Positions 35,872-49,737 of a stretch of 64,000 bases of DNA are shown here, one piece after another. The stretch comes from Chitinophagales bacterium (GTDB lineage Bacteria; Bacteroidota; Bacteroidia; Chitinophagales; UBA10324). Each line of letters starts with the position of its first letter. Within the stretch, counting starts at the first letter, position 1. The stretch is taken from assembly GCA_035638255.1 (NCBI GenBank), contig DASRAJ010000157.1, forward strand, positions 94,827 through 158,826. Direction: 5' to 3'. The translations under genes were made by a program, and so were the position numbers. The notes under the pieces were generated by a model. It saw only the letters and a list, made by a program, of their open reading frames with translations. It was not told the DNA's origin and searched no databases.

Positions 35872-38043
35872 CTATGGAAGAGGTGCAATGGCAATGGCTG
35901 CGGTGTCACCTGCATCGAGATAATCCAGCGAGTTAACACCATCAGTATGCGTCGCATCAACGTGCAAGGTTTCTGCAAATGCTGCCTGCGGACAGGTACC
36001 AAGCATGGTGCCCACCGGGATTACTTTTGAATAAGCATCGAGCGGACTTGCTCCCATGGGTGAATTACCAACGGTGTAGAAATTATTTCCAATGGTTACT
36101 GCACCGGCTGAATTGCCTTCGATTACAGGATTGCTGTTTCCTTTCGTCACATTGAAACTATAGGTCGCAAAGTCGTGCGGATGTCCGGCAACGAAACGCA
36201 GCGTAACATTGTCCGTAGCCTTGTCATTGTAATAGCCAAAGCCGCACACGGTATCTGTAGTACCACTTGGAACAATCGCATCCTGAACATCAGCATAACA
36301 GTGATTATTATCAATGCGCATATAAAAACGGAATGCAATGGCCAGTCCCGCACCATTCTTGACCACATAGTGTTCGGGCAATCCATCGGCTGTTACCGTT
36401 TCCTGGGAAGGATCGAGAACAATGTCGGAAGGTTTCTTGGAAACCACATACGTGTCTGCAGGTATAGCCTGAACAACACCGGCCGCATTGACCAATTCGA
36501 AGGTTAGTTCATAGAGGCCTTCCATGGATAGTCCTGTTGTATTCAGATAAATGGTTGCCGTGTCCTGCCGTTCCCATTCTGCTCCCGGTTCGGGTACATC
36601 CAGTACTGCATCCGTATGCGGTATTTTATATTGAGCGTTTCCGCCAACCATTGCTGCACCCATCGGAAAATTATTAGAAGCGAATTGTGTATGTCCGGCC
36701 ACTACAATCGGATAGGTATAGTGCTTTGCAATATCTCCGGAGAGGTTATGATCGCCATCAGCAATAGGATTCAGGTTCCCGTCAAAAATTCTTTTAAACC
36801 TCCAGCGATAATGCGATGCGGCGGCGTTCGGGAATCCTGCACCGAACTGAACTACGAGTGGAAACGTGCTTCCAAACGGACTGATGTTTCCATAACCTCC
36901 GTATTGTGTAAGACCAACGGCGTCCGCCAAATGACCGCTGGCTGCGTGAGACTGTTGAATGCCCCGAATACTTGCTCCGAAGTTGATGCTCTTCATCCAG
37001 ATCACATCACCCGGCAATGGATCGCAAGAGCAGGGCCTCACCCGGTCATCATAGATGCGGATGTTGATGTCCGTTCCGCAGGGATAATTCCACCAGGTGT
37101 GGCAAGGTTTAAAGGGACGATAAACCGTTACCCAATTACCATCAATCAATACCTCAACCCAGACGTAAATGTTCTTGCCGCCGAAGTCCCAGAAGCTGAA
37201 ATCGAAATGACCGTTGCAATCACTTTCTGCCACGCCTAATTCTGTGCAGCGATAGAACCACGGCCAAAACCAGGGCCATAAGCAGAAGTAGGGATGCAAA
37301 TCGGTAAAGTGTTCTAAAACAGAGCTCTTAATGGCAGATAGTGAATCAGAGATGATGGCTGTTTGAACTTTTGCAGGAAGCGTAGGCAACGCAATCGTTT
37401 TGGCATTGCCGGTTGTAGAACTCATAACCTTTGCCATCCTGATACCCGGAACTCCTGATAGGAATGGTGGGTCCGGTGGATTGGGATTCGGGATGGGAAT
37501 TGGAATGCGTTCTTTCGGCCAGTCAATATGCGGGCGAAGCTTGGTGGCTAAATCAATGAATACCCAATCGGGGATATGGTTCCACCAAATAATAATCGGA
37601 TCAATATCACACACATGAACTCTTGCATCGCAAACAGGCAATATCTTCTCGACTCCATCAATGATAAACGATTTGGTCAGGTTACCTGTAATGTGACACC
37701 ATGGCCAGAAGATGGGCCAGTCAATGTGAGGTATAGCCGTAACATCAATTGTATGCTCAGGAGAAATAATGGTGGAGGTTTGAAATCCGCCCGCATTCTT
37801 CAACATGCCCGCTGAAACATTTTGAGCTAACTCTTTCGGCATTGGCGGGCCTATGATAAGTTGAACCTGGCCTCGCATAAGCGCCACCGGAGTTTCCAAT
37901 GTTGCCTCTCCTTTTGAAATGGGTTTAGACTCCAGCAATTTGCCGGTAGCATTTTCGAATACATAGGCATGAGCATTTTTCAATGCTTCGTGATGCCTGC
38001 TGTCAATTTTTAGTTTGACAGGCTTTGATCTTGTGTCTTTCAT
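35872..38043 (-). CDS. 723-aa orphan protein, no signal peptide
   Basis: Long uninterrupted ORF. Trp/Pro-rich patches (IDWPIFWPWCH, CLWPWFWPWFYRC, PIPIPNPNPPDPP) and a beta-rich C-terminal half. It is preceded by a partial copy of the shared leader. Confidence 0.75.
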   Translation of the reverse strand: MKDTRSKPVKLKIDSRHHEALKNAHAYVFENATGKLLESKPISKGEATLETPVALMRGQVQLIIGPPMPKELAQNVSAGMLKNAGGFQTSTIISPEHTIDVTAIPHIDWPIFWPWCHITGNLTKSFIIDGVEKILPVCDARVHVCDIDPIIIWWNHIPDWVFIDLATKLRPHIDWPKERIPIPIPNPNPPDPPFLSGVPGIRMAKVMSSTTGNAKTIALPTLPAKVQTAIISDSLSAIKSSVLEHFTDLHPYFCLWPWFWPWFYRCTELGVAESDCNGHFDFSFWDFGGKNIYVWVEVLIDGNWVTVYRPFKPCHTWWNYPCGTDINIRIYDDRVRPCSCDPLPGDVIWMKSINFGASIRGIQQSHAASGHLADAVGLTQYGGYGNISPFGSTFPLVVQFGAGFPNAAASHYRWRFKRIFDGNLNPIADGDHNLSGDIAKHYTYPIVVAGHTQFASNNFPMGAAMVGGNAQYKIPHTDAVLDVPEPGAEWERQDTATIYLNTTGLSMEGLYELTFELVNAAGVVQAIPADTYVVSKKPSDIVLDPSQETVTADGLPEHYVVKNGAGLAIAFRFYMRIDNNHCYADVQDAIVPSGTTDTVCGFGYYNDKATDNVTLRFVAGHPHDFATYSFNVTKGNSNPVIEGNSAGAVTIGNNFYTVGNSPMGASPLDAYSKVIPVGTMLGTCPQAAFAETLHVDATHTDGVNSLDYLDAGDTAAIAIAPLP

Positions 38044-38110
38044 AAGTTATTTTTTTTGCCTACTCTATTTCCCTTTTCAGCTTCCGGGTGCTTACTCTTT
38101 TCTTAGGATT
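38044..38110 (-). promoter_or_regulatory. partial copy of shared 5-prime leader (proximal block)
   Basis: ttttgcctactctatttcccttttcagcttccgggtgcttactctttt parallels ttttcgcctactcgttcccttttcggctgccgggtgcttactcttttt at 41593-41640. Confidence 0.6.
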
Positions 38111-38263
38111 TTCAGCTTGCTCCTTCTTTATCACATCTATAGTTCCGGGGAATCCATTCGCTGGCCTTCGACAAAGGCTAAAGCATTCTTGAAATATGGA
38201 TTAGTGGGATCTCTTCTTTCCTTTGCCTGATTTTATTCTGCATTTAGCATTAAGAGACAGGAA

Positions 38264-38743
38264 TTAATAAAGAAGCGTTAGTGAAGTATATCCTTCACTG
38301 CTATCGGTGCTTAGCATTATATCCCGTCCGAAATAAAAACGATTGTAATTTTCCTGCCAGGCAAATGAATCTATAGTGCCGGGAATAAATTGCAGGTCAC
38401 CGCTGACAATCGTACTGTCAATATTTACCTTCTCCCATGCATCATCTCCCTCAGCGATGAGCTTTACTTTCAGGTGACCACTTAGACCGTTTTCAAATTC
38501 TTTATAGCAGGGGAGGGCAGTGCCTGAAAAGGCAACTCCGGGACCATCGGGGTTTTTAAATTCCCAACAGTAAGCTGCATCGGAATCTTTACCGAGGCGA
38601 AGTGTGCGGCCCGGTTCCAGATTGGCGCGTTGAAGTAATTCATTATCACGATAGATTTCAAGGACTACAGGAGCGTTACTTCTGCTCCACCAGTTGTGAC
38701 CGGTTTGAATTGTCCAATAAACTTTGGTTACTTTAGTTGACAT
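38264..38743 (-). CDS. 159-aa PLAT/LH2-like beta-sandwich protein (tentative), no signal peptide
   Basis: VYWTIQTGHNWWSRSNAPVVLEIYRDNELL...LGKDSDAAYCWEF...LKVKLIAEGDDAWEKVNI follows the PLAT pattern (T.G....gTda.V...l.G.......L........f.rg......F......g.l..i.i..d..g....W....v). The assignment is by pattern only. Confidence 0.65.
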   Translation of the reverse strand: MSTKVTKVYWTIQTGHNWWSRSNAPVVLEIYRDNELLQRANLEPGRTLRLGKDSDAAYCWEFKNPDGPGVAFSGTALPCYKEFENGLSGHLKVKLIAEGDDAWEKVNIDSTIVSGDLQFIPGTIDSFAWQENYNRFYFGRDIMLSTDSSEGYTSLTLLY

Positions 38744-39035
38744 GACTTTTGATTTTGTTTTTTTCGCCTATTCCTAAAACCATTTCGGCTTCCGAATACT
38801 TCCTCTTTTTATCCCGTTCTTTCAGTGCTTACGGGCACAGGAAAGAGGGGCAAGGATTTTTAGCAAACTCCTATATGAATTGATTTATGAAAATGCTGTT
38901 GTTTTAAATCTTATGGCAGCAAAGGTGCAGTTCAGCGCTACTCCAGTACAACGGGAAAAACACCAGTAACCGCGGGTGATTTAACGGGGGTGAAAGAGCG
39001 GTTATATAGGAAGGAATAGGTTCTTTGCAGCAGAT
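38744..39035 (-). promoter_or_regulatory. shared leader/promoter module, copy 1 (proximal block plus shortened distal block)
   Basis: Contains the block ctctttttatcccgttctttcagtgcttacgggcacaggaaagaggggcaaggatttttagcaaactcctatat (about 74 nt), which I read as identical to copy 2. It also has the distal gcagcaaaggtgca...acaacgggaaaaacacc...gggtgatttaacgggggtgaaagagcggtt. Confidence 0.75.
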
Positions 39036-39323
39036 AAATCATCTACAAAATCATGGAAACAAATAATTCAATGGACAAACCTATAGGACATGGCGGGGCT
39101 ACAGCTATTAATACCGCATTTTGCAGTTCAATAAAATGAACCGCAGACCTGTCCCGATTTTTTTCGGGAGAGCGCAAAGAATTTCGCAGAGAAAAAAGGC
39201 AAAGTTTGACACCAGATAATTTGTAACTTTTTCTTTGTGCTATTCTTTGCGTTTTACTCCGGGTTCTTTGCGACAAAAATTCGAACTGCAAATTTCGGGT
39301 TAATCGGTTGTTCTTCGATTGTT

Positions 39324-40226
39324 TTAACCCTCTTTAAGCAATCTTGCAACAGCATTAGCAATCGGTAGTCCTGTCTTCAATTCAAAGTATGAAAATGCCG
39401 GTGAAGCATTTACTTCAAAGCAATACCATTCGCCTTTTGAAGTGCACCGCAGATCAATGCCTGATAGATGGAAGCCCAGGTGTTTGGAGAGCTCGATGCA
39501 ATTATTTTCAACAGCTTGCGGCAGGGTTACAATTTCCATTTCAGTTTGAGAGTAACGATAGTCTTCAGCAACAGAATGGATTTTGCAACTAAACGTACGA
39601 GTACCCACCACGTGTACTCGATAGTCAGTGCCTGCAATAAATTGCTGGAATTGTGTGGGGCAAAATTGGACATCCTTCATCCGAACGTAATCTTCGTCAG
39701 ACAATTTACGGACAATACTTCGAATTCCGCTGATGGATTTATAAATGATTTGTCCATGTCGCTTCCAAAATTTCTTCAGTTCATATGGAGACGTGGTTAT
39801 TAATGTTTCAGGTATAGAGAAGCCGAAATTCCCGATGATTGAACATTGATAAGGTTTGGAATGATTGGAAGCCATCAAAGAAGGACGGTTAATAACCAAA
39901 GCGTCGGTCATTTCAGACCAGCTCCATAGAATGTCTTCCGCCGCCGCCATTTGCTGAATATGACTATCAGTTGTGTCAAGGGCTTCATACTCCTCATAAT
40001 CCCTGAAATTATAAGTTCTAAAATAACATGTGCTGATATCGCTAACTGAAATTTTTTCTCCATAAATCTCTATCGTTCCTTTCAGCTTTGGAATAAAATT
40101 GATTTTTACTTTCAGCTCATCTAAATCGCGGTGGTTAAGAAAATAGAACGGTACATTCATTCGCTTCAATTCGTCAAACACCATTTGCATCGGTGTATCA
40201 TCTAACAGTCCCCAAAGCAGTATCAT
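39324..40226 (-). CDS. ATP-grasp enzyme (MvdD/MdnC/RimK-like)
   Basis: NHSKPYQCSIIGNFGFSIPETLIT....LKKFW......IYKSISG...TQFQQFIAGTDYRVHVVGTRTFSCKIHS...DYRY....IVTLP......C.ELSKHLGFHLSGIDLR.T..GEWYCFEVNASPAFSYFE..TGLPIANAVARLL parallels microviridin-type ATP-grasp ligases. The start is moved to MILLWGLLDD (ATG at 40226, 1 nt after the upstream stop). Confidence 0.8.
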   Translation of the reverse strand: MILLWGLLDDTPMQMVFDELKRMNVPFYFLNHRDLDELKVKINFIPKLKGTIEIYGEKISVSDISTCYFRTYNFRDYEEYEALDTTDSHIQQMAAAEDILWSWSEMTDALVINRPSLMASNHSKPYQCSIIGNFGFSIPETLITTSPYELKKFWKRHGQIIYKSISGIRSIVRKLSDEDYVRMKDVQFCPTQFQQFIAGTDYRVHVVGTRTFSCKIHSVAEDYRYSQTEMEIVTLPQAVENNCIELSKHLGFHLSGIDLRCTSKGEWYCFEVNASPAFSYFELKTGLPIANAVARLLKEG

Positions 40227-40227
40227 G

Positions 40228-40926
40228 TCAAGTTTTTTTTGAAAAGAATTTAATGATTGCAGCAGCCACTTTTTTGTCATTAATATCGGGAAACTGAGAT
40301 GCATGTGCAAACTTCCATTCGCCATCAAAATTTCTTTTGAAACCGACTTGCAATAGATTTAAGTTCGTCACTTCAGCTAACCGGAGTGAATAATTTTGAA
40401 GCACTGCATTCTTTGTACCGATACATTTTCGCCCAATAACAGTTATTCTCGCATAGTCTTCATTTTTCAATGTGTTTGTTGTATAAGACCTTGTATTGGA
40501 TCTCTTCAATGATAGGGTAGGGATGGCTTGTTGCTGTGCCAATTTCATCCAATATTCTAATCTCCACAGTTGACCATTCAAGCAAGTGGGCGAAGGAGGG
40601 TTGAGTACAGGACATTTCAACTGTGAAAGAAACCATAGCATGAACGCATTCATTTCGCTGGCCACATAACTACGGTCTTCTTTATTTATTTGGACCAATT
40701 CCATCGGATAGATATTTGGAATAAGCGTGAGAACTCCTGAGATATTTCCAAGTTGGATTTTTTTACCCGATGCAACAATGCTTCCCTTCTCAATTTGATG
40801 GAAGAGAATATCTGTATCCTTTCTCGACAGATCCATACTCGTAAGTAAAGAGGCCGCCCCCCTGGTAAACTTATTTACCAAAGAAGCGGCTGCTTCGTCA
40901 AGAATGCTTGCAATTACCAGGACCAT
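40228..40926 (-). CDS. short ATP-grasp-like partner protein (N-terminal/central-domain-like, no obvious catalytic C-terminus)
   Basis: 232 aa. MVLVIASILDEAA...VLTLIPNIYP...YVASEMNAFMLWFLSQLKCPVLNPPS resembles the pre-ATP-grasp and substrate-clamp part of MdnB/C-type enzymes. Its start overlaps the upstream stop (TAATG). Confidence 0.6.
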   Translation of the reverse strand: MVLVIASILDEAAASLVNKFTRGAASLLTSMDLSRKDTDILFHQIEKGSIVASGKKIQLGNISGVLTLIPNIYPMELVQINKEDRSYVASEMNAFMLWFLSQLKCPVLNPPSPTCLNGQLWRLEYWMKLAQQQAIPTLSLKRSNTRSYTTNTLKNEDYARITVIGRKCIGTKNAVLQNYSLRLAEVTNLNLLQVGFKRNFDGEWKFAHASQFPDINDKKVAAAIIKFFSKKT

Positions 40927-41576
40927 TAGTTCTTGTTGCCTTTTCTTGCGGCTTTAGCTACTTTGCTTCCTACGGCAGGGCGTTCAGTTGATTTTATGAA
41001 AGCAGGGTTTTGACCAATAGTTTTTTCAAGCCCTTCTAAACGCTGTTCAACAGAGGCAAGCCATGCGGGATCACCAATATTTTGGAATGGGTCTCCTACT
41101 TCAGCATCTTTTAGCTTAGGAATTTCTATCTCCCGCTTTTGATGTACCTCATAAATAAATTCCTTATACTCTTTGAATTCTTTGAAATCTTTAATGAACT
41201 CCTTATGGGTCTCTTTGATATCTTTATTCTCTTTAATAAACTTGTGAAAAGGTTGGAAGCAAGTGAGAACAAGATCATTAAAATCCCCATCGCCGGCATC
41301 TTCTGATAAAATGTCGAAGGACACACCTGTTCCTAAAACAGTAGGGGAAGTAAGCTGCATAGCGGAATCCCGAAAAACGCCACTGCCAGGATTATTTTGG
41401 ATTTGAATCGTCCAGGGAAATCCGGCTCCGGCAAGTACAGTTACCGGCGGTGAGCCAACAGTGCCCGGATGAGGGCCGTTGTTTGTTCCGCCGCCGCTTA
41501 CTACAAACTGCTGAGCAAAAGCAGCAGACTTGGATTTTACAGTAATGGTCCAAGTTCCATGCATTGTAAGTGACAT
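40926..41576 (-). CDS. 216-aa protein: LecB/DUF4114-like calcium-lectin motif domain plus KEF-repeat charged tail, no signal peptide
   Basis: FDILSEDAGDGDFNDLVLTCFQP aligns with the LecB (PA-IIL) C-terminus FALVGSEDGTDNDYNDAVVVINWP, recalled from memory. It is followed by HKFIKENKDIKETHKEFIKDFKEFKEYKEFIYE. Confidence 0.7.
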   Translation of the reverse strand: MSLTMHGTWTITVKSKSAAFAQQFVVSGGGTNNGPHPGTVGSPPVTVLAGAGFPWTIQIQNNPGSGVFRDSAMQLTSPTVLGTGVSFDILSEDAGDGDFNDLVLTCFQPFHKFIKENKDIKETHKEFIKDFKEFKEYKEFIYEVHQKREIEIPKLKDAEVGDPFQNIGDPAWLASVEQRLEGLEKTIGQNPAFIKSTERPAVGSKVAKAARKGNKN

Positions 41577-41925
41577 AAGTTAAAGTTTTTACTTTTTCGC
41601 CTACTCGTTCCCTTTTCGGCTGCCGGGTGCTTACTCTTTTTATCCCGTTCTTTCAGTGCTTACGGGCACAGGAAAGAGGGGCAAGGATTTTTAGCAAACT
41701 CCTATATAATTAATTTTTAAACCTTCCGGTCTGTTAAGTCTGTGTAAAAGTTGATGAAAGCTGTTGCACATCTGAAAAGAAATTCTTTTAATCTTGTCGC
41801 AGCAAAGGTGCAGTGCAGCGATACCGCCGTACAACGGGAAAAATACCGGAAGCCGGGGGTGATTTAACGGGGGTGAAAGAGCGGTTGTATAAGAAAGAAT
41901 GAGTGGGTTCCTTGTATAGGATAAA
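41577..41925 (-). promoter_or_regulatory. shared leader/promoter module, copy 2 (full length)
   Basis: Proximal block 41577-41712 matches copy 1. Distal block 41719-41925 is nearly identical to 46097-46300. It contains the direct repeat GGGGGTGA-N6-GGGGGTGA (41855-41876). Confidence 0.75.
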
Positions 41926-42096: not shown

Positions 42097-43287
42097 TCAA
42101 TCAAGCATTAGCGGGGGAAAGGCGGCTTCTGAATATGCCTGTTCTATTTTTCTAACCGTTTTTTCCCAGAGCCACTTTTTCCTTACCTCTTTTGCCCCGG
42201 CTATTCCAAGCCGCTTGCGAAGTGAAGTGTTTCTTGATAACTCGATAATGGATTCTGCCAGCGCATTGGGGTTTTTTGGAGGGACTAATTTTGCAGACAC
42301 ATTATGAGCTAAGATTTCAGATGGACCTCCAATGTTTGTTGCAACTATAGGCAAACCATATAGCATTCCTTCAAGAACAACCATACCAAAGGGTTCATAC
42401 CAGCTTGGAATCACCAGCATGTCTGCTTTTTCATACCATCCGTTTATTTCGCCAGGTGTAAGCCAACCTGTGAAATGCACTTGGTTTTTAAAGGGGGTAA
42501 GTGTATCAACCAAGCATTCTTTTTCGATTTCAACACCTCCGCCATAACCGCCTGCCAAAACAAATTTGGCCTTAGGGAAAGAGGTAAGTACTGTTGGAAT
42601 AGCATCTATCAAATCCCAAATTCCCTTTCGCTCTACAAATCTTCCGGTGTATAAAATAGTCAACTCAGTTTCTTTCCATTCGCGTTTTATAGAAGATAGC
42701 TCTGCCTCTTTATAATCTTCAATTCCGTTTCCTGCTACGCTTACTTTGTTTATTGCCTGAGGATAATATTCGGCCAGTATTTCCTTTTCACTTTCTGAAA
42801 TGGCAATGATTCGATCTGATTCATCGATGGCTTGTTCCTGCACCTGCCAGTGATTAAAAAGTTTCCCCACCTCATACTCAGCCTTGTCAATCGAATGCAC
42901 GGTAAAAACAATTGGGCAGTTACATCTTTCGCGTATTCTCATTGCGACAGGTAGTAACCATGCAGTGTGCAGATGTATAATATCAGGCACCCAATATTCT
43001 GATAACACATCAGCGATCTTCCATGCTTCGTTGGGAGCGACGTGAAAGAATAAAATATTTTCACGAACAATGATTTTTTCAGTGGAGAATTGATCTCTCA
43101 GGTCTTCCATTGAGTTGGTCTCCCAGCTTCCATAAGGCTGTTTATTCAGAACCAAAGCCCCACCGACAAGCAATACTCCAACTGAATAATGTTCTTTAGC
43201 GAGCGCTTTTGTCAATCCGCCTACTGCTGTACCGAGGCCTCCCCAAATTATAGGAGGATATTCCGGCGTTATGTGAAGGATTTTCAT
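42097..43287 (-). CDS. family 4 glycosyltransferase (glycogen-synthase-like GT-B)
   Basis: MKILHITPEYPP..WGGLG N-terminus and EPFGMVVLEGMLYGLPIVATNIGGPSEI (E-x7-E region). Confidence 0.85.
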   Translation of the reverse strand: MKILHITPEYPPIIWGGLGTAVGGLTKALAKEHYSVGVLLVGGALVLNKQPYGSWETNSMEDLRDQFSTEKIIVRENILFFHVAPNEAWKIADVLSEYWVPDIIHLHTAWLLPVAMRIRERCNCPIVFTVHSIDKAEYEVGKLFNHWQVQEQAIDESDRIIAISESEKEILAEYYPQAINKVSVAGNGIEDYKEAELSSIKREWKETELTILYTGRFVERKGIWDLIDAIPTVLTSFPKAKFVLAGGYGGGVEIEKECLVDTLTPFKNQVHFTGWLTPGEINGWYEKADMLVIPSWYEPFGMVVLEGMLYGLPIVATNIGGPSEILAHNVSAKLVPPKNPNALAESIIELSRNTSLRKRLGIAGAKEVRKKWLWEKTVRKIEQAYSEAAFPPLMLD

Positions 43288-43370: not shown

Positions 43371-45866
43371 CTAAATTGCTTTGAACTGAATCCTTCTGAA
43401 TGATACCCTGCCAGTGTGCGTTTGCAATCCAACAAAATGGGTAACATCACTTCCTCTTAGCGGATCAGGATTAGAATAATCTGTTACTAAGCTCCCGTTG
43501 AGGAAGACATTGTAATTCTGACCGATGCACAGAATTTCCATTTGATTCCACTCTCCAGGATTTTTTAATTGCGGATTATTAGGCGCAGCAAATCCATAGA
43601 TGGCCGCGGTTTTATGAATATCCAAACCAGGGGGATTTCCCTCTCCGATGTTATTAATCTGAACCTCGAAGCCAAAATTGATAGCCACGTAAGCCGTGTT
43701 ATCAAAACCCTTGCTGTCTATATTAGGGAAGCGAACGAATACTCCGGAATTATCATCGTCACGCCATGTGAGAAACTCCAGTTTCAAGCTGTAATTCTGT
43801 GGCATCGCATCGGTATAATAAAGTAATCCTAAATCATTTCCTGGCTGTGATTCTAAAGCGCCACGTACGATATTAAAGCTACCGGGATTATCCCGGCCCG
43901 GTTGATTTTTAATGGTGCTCATCTTCCATTTACTCAAGTCAACTCCGTTAAACATCATTGTATAACCGGCATCGGGTACATCAGGAGGAACAATAAATTG
44001 ATCGGCTAACCTTCTTGCGAGTCCAACCCCAGTCAACATCGGATTAGGTGATCCTACTGTCGGAAACAGAACAGGTCCTGCGGCATAAGCATTGGAAACG
44101 AAATGAAATTTCCCGGTTTCATCCGTAACCGAATTCATGGGGTCACTGCCCATCCATAAAGTGCCGGCTTCATGATGCGTGGTGCCCATGCCATCTCGCC
44201 TTCCGCCATTCCAGCGATAGTCATAAGCATATAGGGCTTTCAAATCAGTAGCGGCGTTAGCAGGAAGCCATGCGTTTGAATTCGACAGCACCTCGAAATC
44301 TTCTCCATCAGCAAAAACTTTTGCAACATCATCTGAAGCTTTATCCATTGCATCCCACAATGCCATATCATTTGCGTTTAGACTATACGTGATGAAAGCG
44401 CGGGTTACTCCAACTTCATCAACCGGTTGCTCTGTAGCGAGGCGTATAAAACTTCCGGGATTTCTTGCTTCGGTTTCACCTATGCCCCTGATAGTAATAA
44501 CAACCGTAGTATCACTTGATTGGTTGAGCGCGTTGACAGAATCGAAGTCAGGAATTTTTTTGAAAAGCTCAGCTTCTGAATCTGTTGTTGGCTTTGAAAC
44601 TCCCGAAGCTGTTATCTGCAAATGGAAGAATCCTTTCTTGCCATTACCGCGATCGTGAGCGCCTTTAACAAACAGTGCAGATGCTTCGAGGGCTTGCAAT
44701 ACTGAACCCAGATTTTTTACTGACGTGCGCGGAATTCGTATAGTGAGATTCGATCGCAAATGCGCCATCAGGTTCTGGCCAATAAGGTTGTAGTTATTAA
44801 TTCCCTGAAAAGAAAGTAATGCCAGGCGGGTATTTTCAATGGTACCAATTGCGAGCACCACTTTGGTGCTTTCAGCAAGTGAGATAAATCCCTGCGTGGT
44901 TTCGATGCCGGTTACATGTGCAGTACCGTTAATTATTTCGGTTTGCAAACGAATTACCCTGCAATGCGGAACCACCATCAATCTCTTCTTAACATCATCA
45001 GGAGTGCCGTTGTGCATTGATTCGTTCGAGGCCTTTCGTGTTGAATCAATCATAAGTGGTACAGCACTGAATTTATTGATTGGAAATAATCCCGAAGCAC
45101 TCTTGGTTTGCACGGCGAGCGGCGCTTCTAATTTGAACTCGTTTACCTTTAATGGAGAAGAACCCGGAGGCGTTCCCGGATTAACAGGTAGCTTATTGAA
45201 AGGTATAGCATCAGAAATGTTTCCGTTCTTTATGCCGTCATGCAATTGCTTTCTGAGAGCATTATGAAGACCTCCATGGATAAAATCGTTACTAACATCG
45301 GTTCCTATTTGTGAGGCAGCTTCGGCGAAATACTTATTGTTAAGCTCATCCTTAACTATAGATGGCCATTTGTCATCAGGCATTTCAGTTAGGCCATTTA
45401 AATTTAAAAGTTGCGGCGACCAACCACCAAAAAATACTGACCTGCCTCCTAAACAATAGGACAGCCCTGGGAAGCCACCTTTAACATCCGAGCGCCATGG
45501 CAATCCCCATATTTCATTTCGTGGCACCATGGGATCAATTTCCGTTGCGCCGGGCGGAACGAGACCCAGTATGGGATAATTCTGAAAATGCTCACTCAGG
45601 ACAAATGGTCCTGCTTCAAGAATGAGAATGCGGTGGCTGTGACTTTTGTCTTTTTCAAAAAGATGTTGGGCAAACACAGGCCCGAAACTGCCACCGCCAA
45701 TCACTATAATGTCAAATGGGAGTGCATCGTTTTGCGGACTTCCGTCTTTGCGGCTTCGTCCCTTATCTGTACTGTTGATTGCTTCATCAAAACCATTGCA
45801 GATATATCTTCCCAATACATCTTTCGAAAAATCGGTTTCCTGAGATTTAATTGCTGTCATAAACAA
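43371..45866 (-). CDS. GMC-family FAD oxidoreductase fused to a C-terminal DUF1080 (3-keto-disaccharide-hydrolase-like) domain
   Basis: IIVIGGGSFGPVFAQ...ILILEAGP Rossmann motif. HHEAGTLWMG.D...SVTDETGKFH.VSNAYAAGPVLFPTVGSPNPMLTGVGLARR is the GMC C-terminal catalytic region. The C-terminal ~200 aa (MMFNGVDLSKWK...FEVQI...GEWNQMEI...FLNG...VGLQTHTGRVSFRRIQFK) are DUF1080-like. Confidence 0.8.
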   Translation of the reverse strand: MFMTAIKSQETDFSKDVLGRYICNGFDEAINSTDKGRSRKDGSPQNDALPFDIIVIGGGSFGPVFAQHLFEKDKSHSHRILILEAGPFVLSEHFQNYPILGLVPPGATEIDPMVPRNEIWGLPWRSDVKGGFPGLSYCLGGRSVFFGGWSPQLLNLNGLTEMPDDKWPSIVKDELNNKYFAEAASQIGTDVSNDFIHGGLHNALRKQLHDGIKNGNISDAIPFNKLPVNPGTPPGSSPLKVNEFKLEAPLAVQTKSASGLFPINKFSAVPLMIDSTRKASNESMHNGTPDDVKKRLMVVPHCRVIRLQTEIINGTAHVTGIETTQGFISLAESTKVVLAIGTIENTRLALLSFQGINNYNLIGQNLMAHLRSNLTIRIPRTSVKNLGSVLQALEASALFVKGAHDRGNGKKGFFHLQITASGVSKPTTDSEAELFKKIPDFDSVNALNQSSDTTVVITIRGIGETEARNPGSFIRLATEQPVDEVGVTRAFITYSLNANDMALWDAMDKASDDVAKVFADGEDFEVLSNSNAWLPANAATDLKALYAYDYRWNGGRRDGMGTTHHEAGTLWMGSDPMNSVTDETGKFHFVSNAYAAGPVLFPTVGSPNPMLTGVGLARRLADQFIVPPDVPDAGYTMMFNGVDLSKWKMSTIKNQPGRDNPGSFNIVRGALESQPGNDLGLLYYTDAMPQNYSLKLEFLTWRDDDNSGVFVRFPNIDSKGFDNTAYVAINFGFEVQINNIGEGNPPGLDIHKTAAIYGFAAPNNPQLKNPGEWNQMEILCIGQNYNVFLNGSLVTDYSNPDPLRGSDVTHFVGLQTHTGRVSFRRIQFKAI

Positions 45867-46096: not shown

Positions 46097-46300
46097 AAAA
46101 TCTTTCGGTCTGTTAAGCCTGTGTAAAAGTTGATGAAAGCTATTGCACATCTGAAAAGAAATTCTTTTAATCTTGTCGCAGCAAAGGTGCAAGACAACGC
46201 TACCGCAACACAACGGGAAAAACACCAGGAGCCGGGGGTGATTTAACGGGGGTGAAAGAGCGGTTGTATAAGAAAGGAAGGAATAGGTTCTTTGCAGCGA
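46097..46300 (-). promoter_or_regulatory. shared distal promoter/leader block, copy 3 (between the GMC gene and the divergent lipoprotein gene)
   Basis: Near-identical to 41719-41925 apart from a ~25-nt variable patch. The proximal block is absent here. Confidence 0.7.
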
Positions 46301-46340: not shown

Positions 46341-47504
46341 ATGCAAAACATTAAAAAGACGCCGATAGAGGCACTATGTAAATACCTGCTTTATGGAATA
46401 GTGATGATCGTGTTGTGGCTACATTTTTCCTGCAAGCAACAACAAACGAGTCCTGCACCTATTGAGAACATTTCAGACGACGCGTACTGTGCGACCAAGG
46501 TTGATAGCCTGATCCAAAGTCCTGAAGACCATACCGTGTTGGATTTCGAAAACCTGAGCCGCCAATGCCAGATGAAATTCCTGAAACAAGGACAGGACTC
46601 CCTTAGTGTAATGGATTCTACATCTCAGCATTTTCTCGCCTTAAGTCAGTTAGTATATGAAGCCGGATATTATCTTCTTGAGAAAGAGTATGAGGCAATT
46701 TGGTTTGAGGCACATAAAGGAAAATCAGTGCTTTATGACAATACAATTCCTGCTCAAAATGTGGTGGCAGGCTTTGATGTAAAAGTGAAAATAAGTGTAT
46801 TGATTCAGTACTATACTAATTCTGGCTTTGGAGACAATGGCGGAATTTTATGTGAGCCGGTTCTTGGTCCGATATTACCAGACGGGACAAGGGCTCTTGC
46901 AATTATGATTGCTACAGCTAATTCAGTGAATGGGAGTGGTAGCGGTTCGCTCACCATCAGCCAATATTGCGTTCTTAATAATCCGGGTCCGTACAGTAAT
47001 ATTTCTGACTTACATTTGTTGACACCACCATCGCCACCTCTGCCAGCAAGCCCCTTTAACACTACTATAGGAAGCCCAATTATTTCTTCTCATGACCCAA
47101 GAACTTACCGCTTTTATAGCTGGGACATGATCTATAATCACTACATTAAAGATAACCACCTTGATCCCCAATCTCCCTTCGCTTCGGATGGCAGACCCAA
47201 TAACCCAAACGGCTACATAGGTTTTGAGCTTGGTTATATTGATGGCGATATGCAGACACAGATTTGGGATCCACTACCTCCTAATGATGGCAGCGGTGCT
47301 ATATTATCTGTTGCGCCATATAATTATAACAAAGATGATGTATCAGGCATTACCACGCTCTTACCGCTTTATGACGATAAGGGTCACCTCGTTTTTAATC
47401 CCGCGGTAATGTTACCAAAAGATGCAGGAGGGAAAGGTGAAGGATACATCATGGAAATAGGAAAGCCCTGTCCGCCATACTGCGGCAGTAGTGGTACTCT
47501 TTAA
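46341..47504 (+). CDS. hypothetical lipoprotein
   Basis: 387 aa. A TM/signal segment ends in HFSCK (lipobox-like). Pro-rich central region, no family recognised. Confidence 0.65.
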   Translation: MQNIKKTPIEALCKYLLYGIVMIVLWLHFSCKQQQTSPAPIENISDDAYCATKVDSLIQSPEDHTVLDFENLSRQCQMKFLKQGQDSLSVMDSTSQHFLALSQLVYEAGYYLLEKEYEAIWFEAHKGKSVLYDNTIPAQNVVAGFDVKVKISVLIQYYTNSGFGDNGGILCEPVLGPILPDGTRALAIMIATANSVNGSGSGSLTISQYCVLNNPGPYSNISDLHLLTPPSPPLPASPFNTTIGSPIISSHDPRTYRFYSWDMIYNHYIKDNHLDPQSPFASDGRPNNPNGYIGFELGYIDGDMQTQIWDPLPPNDGSGAILSVAPYNYNKDDVSGITTLLPLYDDKGHLVFNPAVMLPKDAGGKGEGYIMEIGKPCPPYCGSSGTL

Positions 47505-47521
47505 TACGGTGAATCACTATC

Positions 47522-48241
47522 TTGCGAAGAAATCCCCACCGCCCAGTGAGTGATTTCTTCAAGGATATTTTTACGTGGATTCCTTTCGATGTTGAGCTTG
47601 GAACTGTTCTCATCTTTATCCTTTTTTCCAAAACACTTACAACAGAAGAAGTAATGGCAGCGGTAATAATTTTTGTTTCCTGGTTGATGGATGTTTTCAG
47701 CGATGCTATAACATTCAGTTATCATCCATTCTGGTTACTGCTTCAGGAGCACAGTAATCTCTGGTTCCCGAATTATAGCATGCCCATCATTTTCGCTTTG
47801 TATGCTATTTTGTATTTCTATCTTTTTCGAAAGCTGGAAATAAAATGGATAGTAGTATCCGGTTTCATGTTTTTTCTGTTACTCCATGTTGTCAACTTAT
47901 TATATTACCAGGGTTACCGGGGAACTGCAAGCAATTCATTGCTCGCCGGTCAGCTGCTAATTGGCGCCCTGGCATTTTTATACCTCCGGCATGTTGTGGA
48001 AACATCAGATGAGTCACCTTTTCGGAATTTTATGTTTTGGTTCTCTGCTGCAACATTGCTGAGTAATTTTGTTACGGCGCCTGTGACTTCCCTTTTAAGC
48101 TGGCTCCCATCAAATGACCCTAAAGTTTTTGGTGCGCTTTATAGTATTATTGGATTGTACATCGGTTACTACCTCAGTTACTTAATCATCATCATTGGAT
48201 TATTATGGACCCGAAAGCGTGGGATATTATTTTTTCAGTAG
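47522..48241 (+). CDS. multi-pass membrane protein, probably the detached sensor module of the downstream histidine kinase
   Basis: Six or so TM helices. It ends 37 nt inside the next ORF in another frame, at a T6 run. Confidence 0.55.
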   Translation: MRRNPHRPVSDFFKDIFTWIPFDVELGTVLIFILFSKTLTTEEVMAAVIIFVSWLMDVFSDAITFSYHPFWLLLQEHSNLWFPNYSMPIIFALYAILYFYLFRKLEIKWIVVSGFMFFLLLHVVNLLYYQGYRGTASNSLLAGQLLIGALAFLYLRHVVETSDESPFRNFMFWFSAATLLSNFVTAPVTSLLSWLPSNDPKVFGALYSIIGLYIGYYLSYLIIIIGLLWTRKRGILFFQ

Positions 48242-48999
48242 GCATTAGCACCTTCGCATTGCTTGTGCTTTTTGTGCTGGTAATCAATTTGCTTTTGGTG
48301 AGCCGCAACAAAAGGCTGACACACCGCAATGAGGTCCTTGAAATGAAAACCTCCTTCGAGAAAGAGTTGATGAAAACACAAGTGGAAGTCGCAGAAAATA
48401 CACTCAACGATATTGCCCGCGATTTGCACGATGATGTAGGACAGATGCTTACGTTCAGCATCATTCAGCTTAACAACATTCGACCGATGCCCGATGCAGC
48501 GACAGAAAAAAATATCGCGGCAGCCCGCGAGTCGGTACAAAACACACTTCAAAGTGTACGCAGTATTTCGAAAACACTCAGCAATGATTATCTTTCTTCT
48601 TTTGGAATGGAGGAATCTTTAAAGAGATTGTTTGAGCGAATTGCAAGACAGGGTATCGTCAGGACTACTCTTGTTTTCCCTGCAAACGTCCTGTTTAGTT
48701 CCCGGTCTAATGAAGTGTTTGCCTTTCGCATTATTCAGGAATTGGTCACAAATACTCTGAAACATTCCGGTGCAACAGAATTGTCACTGATCATCAGCGA
48801 AGCGGACGGTAATATTCAAATAGAGTATAGTGACAACGGCAAAGGGTTGCATGGAGATCAATTTAACAATGAGCAACTAAAAAACAGCCTGGGCTTTACG
48901 AATATTTTCAAGCGGGCGGAATTAATGCATGGCGAAATCACCATTTCAAATAATTCAGAAGGTGGATTCTATCTTCGTCTTTCATTTCCGAATAAGTAA
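48205..48999 (+). CDS. HisKA_3-type sensor histidine kinase (kinase core)
   Basis: H-box ARDLHDDVGQMLT, N-box ELVTNTLKHSGA, G1 DNGKGL, C-terminal GEITISNNSEGGFYLRLSFP. Confidence 0.8.
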   Translation: MDPKAWDIIFSVGISTFALLVLFVLVINLLLVSRNKRLTHRNEVLEMKTSFEKELMKTQVEVAENTLNDIARDLHDDVGQMLTFSIIQLNNIRPMPDAATEKNIAAARESVQNTLQSVRSISKTLSNDYLSSFGMEESLKRLFERIARQGIVRTTLVFPANVLFSSRSNEVFAFRIIQELVTNTLKHSGATELSLIISEADGNIQIEYSDNGKGLHGDQFNNEQLKNSLGFTNIFKRAELMHGEITISNNSEGGFYLRLSFPNK

Positions 49000-49053
49000 G
49001 AGTATTTCAACGCGTGATCAAGAGCGCAAAATCAAAACGAAACCTTCCCCAAT

Positions 49054-49737
49054 ATGCAGATCAAAATTGCACTTACCGACGATCACCAATTGGTGCGAAG
49101 CGGCATAAAAATGCTCATTGAAAATTTTCCGGAATTCAAAGTTGTCGTCGAGGCATCAAATGGAAAGGAGCTTCTGGAAAAACTCGCACTGCTAAAAGTT
49201 CTGCCTGAAATTGCAATGGTTGATGTTGCTATGCCGGTAATGGATGGATTTGAAACAACAAGAGAGTTGATTAGACAATACCCAAAGCTGAGGGTTGTAG
49301 CCTTGTCAGTCCATGATGATCTCCAAAGCGTGAATAGTATGATTGAAAGCGGAGCGAATGCTTACTTACTCAAAGATTCTTCTCCGCAAATTGTAAGGAA
49401 CACGTTGCAGCAGGTTTTTGAAAAAGGATATTACTACGATAAGTTTGTGATCGAAAGTTTGATGAAAGCAAGGCAGAAGCAGCAAGATGATGAACTGAAA
49501 AAAAACAACAGGTCGGGCCGTAACTCCGGAATTGATCCTGCATCACTTCTCACAGTCAGAGAGATTGAGTTCATGAAGCATAGCTGCAGCGAACTCACCT
49601 ATAAAGAAATTGCTGACCTCATGGAGGTTAGTTTGCGAACAGTTGACGGCTATCGCGAATCGGTATTCTCCAAACTTGATTTGAAATCAAGAACCGGAAT
49701 TGTTTTGTATGCTATTCATAAAGGATTGGCCCAGTAA
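49054..49737 (+). CDS. NarL/LuxR-family response regulator
   Basis: REC domain (IALTDDH...MVDVAMPVMDG...ALSVH) and a C-terminal LuxR HTH (LTVREIEFMKHSCSELTYKEIADLMEVSLRTVDGYRESVFSKL). Confidence 0.9.
   Translation: MQIKIALTDDHQLVRSGIKMLIENFPEFKVVVEASNGKELLEKLALLKVLPEIAMVDVAMPVMDGFETTRELIRQYPKLRVVALSVHDDLQSVNSMIESGANAYLLKDSSPQIVRNTLQQVFEKGYYYDKFVIESLMKARQKQQDDELKKNNRSGRNSGIDPASLLTVREIEFMKHSCSELTYKEIADLMEVSLRTVDGYRESVFSKLDLKSRTGIVLYAIHKGLAQ

Follow-up and report, generated by a model that had tools for sequence, protein, structure and literature searches.

The window analysed here, a 64,000-nucleotide stretch of contig DASRAJ010000157.1 from a Chitinophagales bacterium, contains a sequence block that occurs three times within one 10-kb gene cluster. 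With a probability of about 0.62, this block is a DNA promoter-operator cassette of the adjacent two-component system which has been copied in front of two further operons. The host contig is 166 kb long and belongs to a metagenome-assembled genome (MAG) from soil of 6.98 Mb in 178 contigs. The copies are referred to as copy 1 (38905-39035), copy 2 (41719-41925) and copy 3 (46097-46300), and the minus strand is called the gene strand throughout. Read in the direction of that strand, the cassette would be composed of a tandem operator, TCACCCCC-N6-TCACCCCC, followed after 20 nucleotides (nt) by a -33 TTG located in TTTTTCCCGTTGT, a 21-nt spacer and the -7 box CACCTTTG. The housekeeping Bacteroidota sigma factor would start transcription about 5 nt beyond the box, near positions 41798 (copy 2), 38915 (copy 1) and 46177 (copy 3), and the transcripts would run via a long leader, which in two copies includes a proximal block resembling the DUF805b motif, into three transcription units: a lectin/ATP-grasp trio, the genes for a 159-amino-acid (aa) and also a 723-aa protein, and a GMC/DUF1080-GT4 pair. 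Copy 3 would then represent the native divergent control region of the two-component operon and probably the original, and copies 2 and 1 would be duplicates which retain the minus-strand promoter and the operator and thereby place two more operons under the same regulator. The start sites, the adjacent regulator as the binding protein, its mode of action as activator or repressor and the direction of copying are all predictions made from sequence comparison.

The three copies were recovered at the positions at which an earlier, sequence-only reading of this DNA had placed them, and the 6.98 Mb genome contains no others when searched by BLAST, by nhmmer with the --max option and three profiles, and by regular expressions that allow one mismatch per repeat unit. 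Since only three copies exist genome-wide and all of them fall within the cluster, the block is specific to the cluster and does not behave as an abundant generic repeat, the outcome that the earlier reading had named as its refutation; the single 8-mer GGGGGTGA occurs 84 times in the genome, which is about the chance level. Copies 2 and 3 are clearly similar, and their earlier description as nearly identical slightly overstates a measured identity of 88-91.6%, while copy 1 does correspond to the right-hand portion of the block, of which it retains about 115-145 nt at 86% identity. In the left part of the block, copies 2 and 3 agree at 95% of positions, and copy 1 has lost most of this part. 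Copies 1 and 3 have in common an extra right-hand extension that ends at 39050 and 46317, respectively (repeat family D4), and no homology between copies was found to the right of the block. All three copies carry gcagcaaaggtgca, acaacgggaaaaa and the 30-mer GGGTGATTTAACGGGGGTGAAAGAGCGGTT unchanged, the conserved stretches alongside this 30-mer reading GCAGCAAAGGTGCA and ACAACGGGAAAAA in their extended form. The direct repeat had been thought to be kept in every copy, which holds overall, but the first unit of copy 1 is GCGGGTGA instead of GGGGGTGA. All copies share one orientation relative to the minus-strand genes downstream, which are mutually non-homologous, and each is located upstream of a single unit: copy 3 precedes GMC/DUF1080-GT4, copy 2 the genes of the 216-aa protein, the 232-aa protein and the ATP-grasp enzyme, and copy 1 the 159-aa gene. 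Relatives of the block were absent from 28 genomes of the family, an exact 28-mer of the block had no match in the genome contig collection and an exact 20-mer none in metagenome contigs, and a distant-mode search of plasmid and phage collections likewise returned no match. Metagenome reads from two runs contain only the same strain, in which the blocks show neither variation nor inversion joints.

The sequence-only reading, which found no canonical -7 box, had missed a candidate promoter. The invariant gcagcaaaggtgca in fact reads CACCTTTG on the gene strand, where its extended form GCAGCAAAGGTGCA becomes TGCACCTTTGCTGC, and in all copies this box agrees with five of the six specified positions of TAnnTTTG, the exception being its first base, which is C and not T. 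A TTG is found exactly 21 nt upstream of the box in all three copies. In Bacteroidota, the sigma-A promoter is composed of a -33 TTTG and a -7 TAnnTTTG that occupies positions -12 to -5 (PMC9723704; PMC7366714), and the predicted minus-strand starts given above therefore follow from the position of the box. The validity of such elements as promoter signals in this genome was tested on 2198 regions upstream of long open reading frames (ORFs), in which sense and antisense occurrences were counted. The canonical TAnnTTTG is present 10-95 nt before start codons 384 times in sense and 84 times in antisense orientation. CAnnTTTG is the best of its single-mismatch variants (123 against 65), and TAnn[ACG]TTG, the class to which the only plus-strand candidate belongs, is not enriched (142 against 152). 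The exact CACCTTTG precedes genes 15 times in sense and twice in antisense, and TTG-N20/21-CAnnTTTG does so 22 and three times, respectively, with a sharp peak at spacings of 20 and 21. No other spacing between TA and TTTG is enriched before genes of this genome, and a position weight matrix built around the exact boxes yielded no extra information. Outside the cluster the genome contains 17 copies of TTG-N20/21-CACCTTTG, 13 of which have an ATG-initiated ORF of at least 150 aa beginning 10-130 nt downstream, compared with 17% of positions chosen at random, 8% of matches to the reversed pattern and 24-29% with other spacings, which gives the composite a positive predictive value of 76% elsewhere in the genome. 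TTG-N21-CACCTTTG is the sole composite promoter-like element conserved in all three copies, and it is most likely a near-consensus Bacteroidota sigma-A promoter, as predicted from its sequence.

The suggestion that the block contains a promoter of the extracytoplasmic function (ECF) type is not supported. ECF sigma factors recognise a -35 (G)AAC and a -10 CGT(C/A) located about 16-17 nt apart, and no AAC-N16/17-CGT arrangement fits the block; the only AAC...CGT pair, ACAACC-N13-CGTT, has the wrong spacing, TCACCCCC resembles neither ECF element, and the repeats are located upstream of the promoter and not within it. The window ORFs that were scanned include none for an ECF sigma factor. A promoter at the junction of the distal and proximal blocks (TATAGGAGTTTG) was likewise rejected, TA-N4-TTTG not being enriched in the genome (80 against 109). 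The only exact TAnnTTTG box of the three intergenic regions is TAGGTTTG at 39076-39083 on the minus strand, which lies upstream of copy 1, is not accompanied by a -33 TTG and, if active, would lead to transcription across the copy 1 operator. Elsewhere in the genome there is a promoter family in which a palindrome, TCACC-N6/7-GG(T/C)GA, overlaps TTGAC and is followed by CAnnTTTG about 40 nt before genes of paralogous secreted proteins (MKK...ANAQYFQ...); it is represented on contigs C98 (8962, 19580), C131 (681, 2675, 4879), C10 (38955, 45217) and C104 (24972). This family seems to form a separate regulon, and its half-site GGTGA resembles the repeat unit of the block.

The predicted promoter also provides a simple reading of the variable patch within the block. 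The description of this patch as hypervariable is borne out for copy 3 against the other copies; between copies 1 and 2 it differs at five of 19 positions, which is not significantly above the level elsewhere. Eight of the 15 differences between copies 2 and 3 are located inside one 22-nt window (p=0.004), and the divergence of the patch between copies reaches 42%. The patch coincides with the 21-nt spacer between the -33 and -7 elements, whose sequence varies and whose length is the same in all three copies. From the box to the tandem repeat there is not a single insertion or deletion (indel) in any copy, and on either side of this stretch, in copy 1 on the left, indels are frequent. The patch is read as a promoter spacer because its sequence is free and its length is fixed. 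The notion that it determines specificity is not sustained by these findings, as the patch is accounted for as the -33/-7 spacer and complementarity to neighbouring genes was not found, the energies of duplexes between the patch and the surrounding 4.5 kb on either side being at background level. A diversity-generating retroelement was rejected as the source of the variation, since the differences are not limited to adenines and no reverse transcriptase was seen.

For the tandem TCACCCCC-N6-TCACCCCC, the best reading is a site in the DNA at which a regulator binds, in agreement with what had been proposed for it, and the motif is conserved beside orthologous regulator operons. In every copy the repeats end 20 nt upstream of the -33 TTG and occupy positions of about -57 to -64 and -71 to -78 relative to the predicted start. 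The region from -57 to -78 is the usual location of activators. GGGGGTG[A/T]TTT, in tandem or inverted pairs, is a candidate for the operator of this regulator family, a putative assignment; to our knowledge the motif, with its 14-bp register, matches no known operator. Mimicry of a Shine-Dalgarno sequence by GGGGGUGA was discarded, as pairing with the 3' end of the 16S rRNA (...GGAAUACCUCCUUU) is imperfect and the repeats lie outside the predicted transcripts.

The proposed link between the block and the adjacent NarL/LuxR-type regulator is supported by the presence of the same motif before the orthologous operon in other genera and by an invariant recognition helix. The two-component operon begins on the plus strand 40 nt to the right of copy 3. 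Its products are a lipoprotein of 387 aa, a multi-pass membrane protein of 239 aa, a histidine kinase of the HisKA_3 type and a regulator with Response_reg and GerE domains. Orthologues of the regulator with 52-64% identity were found in six sampled genomes of the order, and in five of these (G200, G229, G113, G022 and G144) the entire four-gene operon is kept in divergent orientation to the neighbouring gene. Upstream of the operon, G200 carries GGGGGTGTTTTCACGGGGGGAAAGATGCGG, which comes close to the two repeat units of the block, shares their orientation and keeps the same distance from the start codon, at 60-91 nt compared with 86-107 nt for the repeats of copy 3. The corresponding motif of G229 is GGGGGTGTTTTCCCCGGGTCAAAATACCCC, and G022 has a perfect inverted pair of 26 nt built on GGGGGGTGTTTTTC; looser versions are present upstream of the operon in G113 and G144. 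The consensus GGGGGTGWTTT occurs one to four times per genome in the relatives, which is about the chance level and similar to a reversed control, and yet the approximately 200-nt region upstream of the operon contains the sole occurrence of G200, two of the three in G022 and one of the four in G229. Alignment of the copy 3 region with the G200 upstream region gave a score of 136, compared with 83 +/- 7 for shuffled sequences. The GerE recognition helix, RTVDGYRESVF, is invariant in all seven orthologous regulators, which fits a shared DNA target. In the relatives the motif is located upstream of the likely promoter of the operon, such as the canonical TAGCTTTG in G113 and CAGCTTTG in G200, and both orientations occur; it is therefore taken to be a DNA site bound by a protein and not an RNA element. 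The operon itself is found at loci L040 (7484-10577), L042 (4387-7479), L043 (10072-13234), L044 (7451-10553) and L045 (9671-12681), and comprises genes for a lipoprotein-like protein (290-390 aa), a multi-pass membrane protein (210-240 aa) without a Pfam match, a HisKA_3 kinase and a LuxR-type regulator. Always divergent from a neighbouring gene and preceded by a G-run motif, it seems to represent an uncharacterised sensing module of the order.

The block also contains nested inverted repeats. The outer pair, TCGCAGCAAAG/CTTTGCAGCGA, has 11 nt with one mismatch flanking about 105 nt in copy 3 and 9 nt in copy 1, and the inner pair, TACAAC/GTTGTA, spans 61 nt. Together they amount to two copies of GTTGTA...nCTTTGCnGCGA with nearly equal spacing, which face outward with the candidate operator between them. 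In copy 3 the unit that faces the two-component operon would provide a promoter, TTG-N20-GTTCTTTG(CAGC), which resembles TTTTGCGTCGCGAATAA at the matching place in G022. Where no plus-strand gene follows, this unit has decayed, to a TTA with a 15-nt spacer in copy 1 and to GTTCCTTG in copy 2. The class to which the GTTCTTTG box belongs is not enriched genome-wide (ten against eight), and the plus-strand promoter of the operon is therefore only a weak candidate; it is possibly activator-dependent. A 28-codon ORF on the plus strand (METNNSMDKPIGHGGATAINTAFCSSIK, 39053-39139) starts 3 nt past the end of copy 1, where the remnant of the plus-strand promoter would point. Its sequence is not similar to the beginning of the 387-aa gene, and it is probably a chance frame.

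On the gene strand, the proximal block is a leader resembling the DUF805b RNA motif (Rfam RF02914) and abuts the distal block in copies 1 and 2. The motif itself, at 41598-41629 and, before the 723-aa gene, at 38057-38125, would share a transcript with the distal block. It is nevertheless a separate module which is kept with the 159-aa gene in other genera without the distal block, and unlike it the distal block matches no Rfam family. Many relatives of the 159-aa protein exist, with identities of at most 72%, and wherever their upstream regions could be read (G016, G017 and three metagenome contigs) the DUF805b-like leader was present and the distal block absent. In G017 the 159-aa orthologue has a canonical promoter, TTG-N20-TAGTTTTG, in the place of the distal block. 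As the orthologues keep the leader but carry other promoters, the distal block is considered a separable, lineage-specific promoter module placed on an older leader. In G017, which represents another genus of the family, a DUF805b-like leader of about 55 nt precedes each of three consecutive genes (L011, 1775-1837, 2366-2422 and 2978-3032), namely the orthologue of the 159-aa gene, one of 96 aa and one of more than 591 aa, and the same holds for G016 (L013); this repetition of the leader gene by gene is therefore older than the present genome.

Several observations weigh against the interpretation of the block as a promoter-operator cassette. Its -7 box agrees with the consensus at five of six positions and is not canonical. 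A single paralogous promoter family accounts for about one quarter of the TTG-N20/21-CAnnTTTG instances, which makes the counts somewhat less independent, although the signal persists after this family is removed. The implied leaders are long, at about 172 nt (copy 1), 222 nt (copy 2) and 317 nt (copy 3), when the other genomic composites lie only 20-130 nt before their genes. The 95% identity of the left 75 nt between copies 2 and 3 exceeds the needs of a promoter and may reflect either recent copying or a role of the leader RNA, and the plus strand of the core is purine-rich, as is expected of a sense strand. The motif is only loosely recognisable in G113 and G144, neither of which was recovered by the profile, and three independent confirmations are therefore counted instead of five. 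Binding by the neighbouring regulator is suggested through guilt by association, and the target cluster is present in no relative, so that the regulon cannot be confirmed by comparison.

The purine-rich plus strand is one reason to consider that the block gives rise to an RNA. A small RNA or leader could be transcribed in plus direction from TTG-N22-TAATCTTG at 41789 and 46168, antisense or divergent to the genes of the cluster, with the patch acting as a seed for its targets. In copies 2 and 3 the core is closely preceded by this near-box, copy 3 runs directly into a plus-strand gene and one construct folds slightly better than its shuffled versions (z=-1.85), but the box is lost in copy 1 and its class, TAnnCTTG, is not enriched before genes either alone (142 against 152) or together with a TTG at 22 nt (1:1). 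Folds of the entire block and of its core gave z-scores from -0.06 to -2.3 over both strands, inconsistent between copies and strands, with no compensatory pairs among only three sequences, and those of the core on the plus strand ranged from -0.4 to -1.1. There is neither a terminator nor an Rfam match at E<=10, the complementarity of the patch to neighbouring genes equals background, and in the relatives the motif is found in both orientations and as a palindrome, which is the behaviour of a DNA site; this explanation is accordingly held to be unlikely. Still less probable is an RNA on the minus strand, originating farther upstream from TAGGTTTG at 39083 or by read-through, in which the C-rich and G-poor region with tandem UCACCCCC would serve as a Rho-loading site or attenuator. 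The minus strand is unstructured and its C:G ratio reaches about 4:1 over approximately 100 nt, copies 1 and 2 lie directly downstream of preceding minus-strand genes, a single canonical -7 box is present upstream of copy 1, and two one-sided substitutions preserve the TACAAC/GTTGTA pairing as G-U on this strand only. A site of this kind would, however, require neither an invariant sequence of 30 nt nor a fixed spacing; the box at 39083 lacks a -33 TTG and has a chance expectation of about 0.5 in that region, and the motif of the relatives is located between divergent genes, upstream of likely promoters, and is palindromic in G022. The remaining coding alternative is very improbable. It holds that plus-strand frames of 37 codons in copies 2 and 3 (MKA[V/I]AHLKRNSFNLVAAKVQ...QREK...PGVI), together with an 18-codon remnant in copy 1, form a real peptide family with a conserved leader and the patch as its hypervariable core, that the peptides are additional substrates or regulators of the partner-dependent ATP-grasp ligase, and that the promoter-like features are coincidental or overlapping. 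Copies 2 and 3 have open frames whose N-terminal half is conserved, and in copy 1 an in-frame ATG has arisen where the conserved part begins, yet the frame of copy 1 is broken by a frameshift and a deletion. Eight of the ten codons changed between copies 2 and 3 are non-synonymous, and the most conserved 30-mer straddles the stop codon and extends 22 nt past it; in copy 1 it follows the stop entirely. When 1.84 billion proteins were searched with a profile, artefacts alone were returned (a translated CRISPR-like repeat and a 5253-aa repeat protein), and the patch is already explained as promoter spacer. Described relatives of the ATP-grasp ligase of the cluster act on large repeat-bearing substrates of the kind represented by the 216-aa protein (PMC13097080).

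The other alternatives treat the block as DNA that has spread without regulatory function or by its own mobility. A recent duplication or gene-conversion tract, in which the motif matches would be coincidental, is about as doubtful as a plus-strand RNA. The high and fairly uniform identity of the left part (about 95%) and the confinement of the repeat to 10 kb, over which conversion would be easy, agree with such a tract, and with three copies only, constraint is hard to measure. The spacer nevertheless differs by up to 42% when the surrounding 30-mer and two 13-14-mers are invariant and no indel separates them, a signature of selection; in addition, other families retain the operator motif in the orthologous place and the promoter composite has the predictive value of 76% given above. 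A six-frame tblastn search of the genome revealed no parent gene from which the block might derive as a fragment. The outer and inner inverted repeats could also delimit a mobile or recombining element, such as a miniature inverted-repeat transposable element (MITE), an invertible promoter bounded by TCGCAGCAAAG/CTTTGCAGCGA or an attC-like site, and this is the least probable of the explanations considered. Homology between the copies extends well beyond the inverted repeats on both sides, no target-site duplications accompany the three copies, contigs of two metagenome runs contain no inverted joints, and plasmid, phage, genome and metagenome collections hold no match. An attC-like site was rejected as the interior is not palindromic, and repetitive extragenic palindromic (REP) elements and MITEs are recognised by many dispersed copies with terminal inverted repeats, as opposed to three copies in one cluster. 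The inverted repeats are instead explained by two back-to-back promoters, each made up of GTTGTA and nCTTTGCnGCGA at equal spacing.

Features of the block copies and genes of the cluster (positions in the window; promoter, operator and leader assignments are predictions)
Feature	Position	Strand	Remarks
Copy 1 promoter TTG-N21-CACCTTTG	38920..38951	-	faces the 159-aa gene and probably also the 723-aa gene
Copy 1 tandem candidate operator	38972..38993		first unit GCGGGTGA
Copy 2 proximal block	41577-41712	-	DUF805b-like leader
Copy 2 left part	41719..41798	-	predicted first ~80 nt of the ~222-nt leader
Copy 2 predicted -7 box CACCTTTG	41803..41810	-	
Copy 2 spacer, 21 nt (variable patch)	41811..41831	-	length equal in all copies
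Copy 2 predicted -33 TTG, inside TTTTTCCCGTTGT	41832..41834	-	TTG at 20-21 nt enriched before CAnnTTTG (22:3)
Copy 2 tandem candidate operator GGGGGTGA-N6-GGGGGTGA	41855..41876		TCACCCCC on the gene strand; about -57..-78
Copy 3 promoter TTG-N21-CACCTTTG	46182..46213	-	faces the GMC/DUF1080-GT4 operon
Copy 3 tandem candidate operator	46234..46255		86-107 nt before the ATG (46341) of the two-component operon; probably the ancestral copy
Copy 3 candidate promoter of the two-component operon, TTG-N20-GTTCTTTG(CAGC)	46264..46298	+	predicted start ~46299, 42-nt leader
Two-component operon	46341..49737	+	four genes
723-aa orphan	35872-38043	-	
159-aa protein	38264-38743	-	
ATP-grasp enzyme	39324-40328	-	
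232-aa protein	40228-40926	-	
216-aa protein	40926-41576	-	
GT4 glycosyltransferase	42097-43287	-	
GMC-oxidoreductase/DUF1080 fusion	43371-45866	-	

Por_Secre_tail domains are encoded near the genes listed in the table and, together with the promoter counts, assign the organism to Bacteroidota. No orthologue of the 216-aa, 387-aa and 831-aa proteins was found in 28 to 301 genomes of the order. The segment 39163-39289, flanked by the 28-aa plus-strand ORF and the end of the ATP-grasp gene, reaches a word depth of 80-350x in two soil metagenome runs, compared with about 8x around it. It contains many variant letters and the inverted repeat CGCAAAGAATTTCGCAGAGAAAAA / TTTTTCTTTGTGCTATTCTTTGCG; its depth and variants indicate a sequence repeated widely, either within that community or across other genomes. 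At 6.98 Mb, the genome is larger than the 27 other genomes of the family (1.9-4.9 Mb), of which one from the same genus has 3.2 Mb, and this may represent a real expansion or a composite bin, although the stated contamination is 1.5%.

The proposed cassette is reminiscent of several known systems. Operators of NarL/LuxR (GerE) regulators, such as the NarL heptamers and the sites of BvgA and RcsB, are short repeated half-sites located before promoters, and their direct or inverted arrangement varies by locus and species. The block shares with them the position of the half-sites upstream of a promoter, the presence of a site at the regulator's own operon and a regulator that consists of Response_reg and GerE domains. 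It differs in that its regulator comes from an uncharacterised family with lipoprotein and multi-pass membrane partners and in that the operator is putative. Compared with the usual sigma-A promoter of Bacteroidota, the TTG, the 21-nt spacer and an 8-mer ending in TTTG are the same, and the C as first base and the leaders of 172-317 nt are different. The closest parallel is promoter reuse, or putative mobile promoters, in which highly similar upstream regions are found before non-homologous genes in the absence of an insertion sequence and which is expected to rewire regulation (Nijveen, Matus-Garcia & van Passel 2012, PMC3575422). The block, with 86-92% identity over 115-210 nt, has the same properties: near-identical DNA stands before non-homologous genes, and there is no plasmid or phage match, no transposase and no bounded terminal repeat. 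In contrast to the described cases, here a probable donor can be named, as the autoregulatory region of the two-component operon, and the copies remain within one 10-kb cluster; moreover the cassette seems bidirectional, and in two of its copies it is joined to another reused piece, the DUF805b-like leader.

As a kind of element, a promoter-operator cassette is ordinary and not new, and its value is local, for annotation, for prediction of the regulon and as evidence of a CAnnTTTG promoter variant in this lineage. If the interpretation is correct, it would provide a testable wiring diagram for orphan genes, in which three operons are under the control of one uncharacterised two-component system of the envelope type. 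The orphan genes concerned are those of the lectin-like protein with its ATP-grasp pair, the PLAT-like protein, the 723-aa orphan and the GMC/DUF1080-GT4 pair. It would further supply a candidate operator motif for a regulator family that is conserved in at least two families of Bacteroidota, and the cluster would represent a clear natural case of promoter reuse with an identifiable donor locus.

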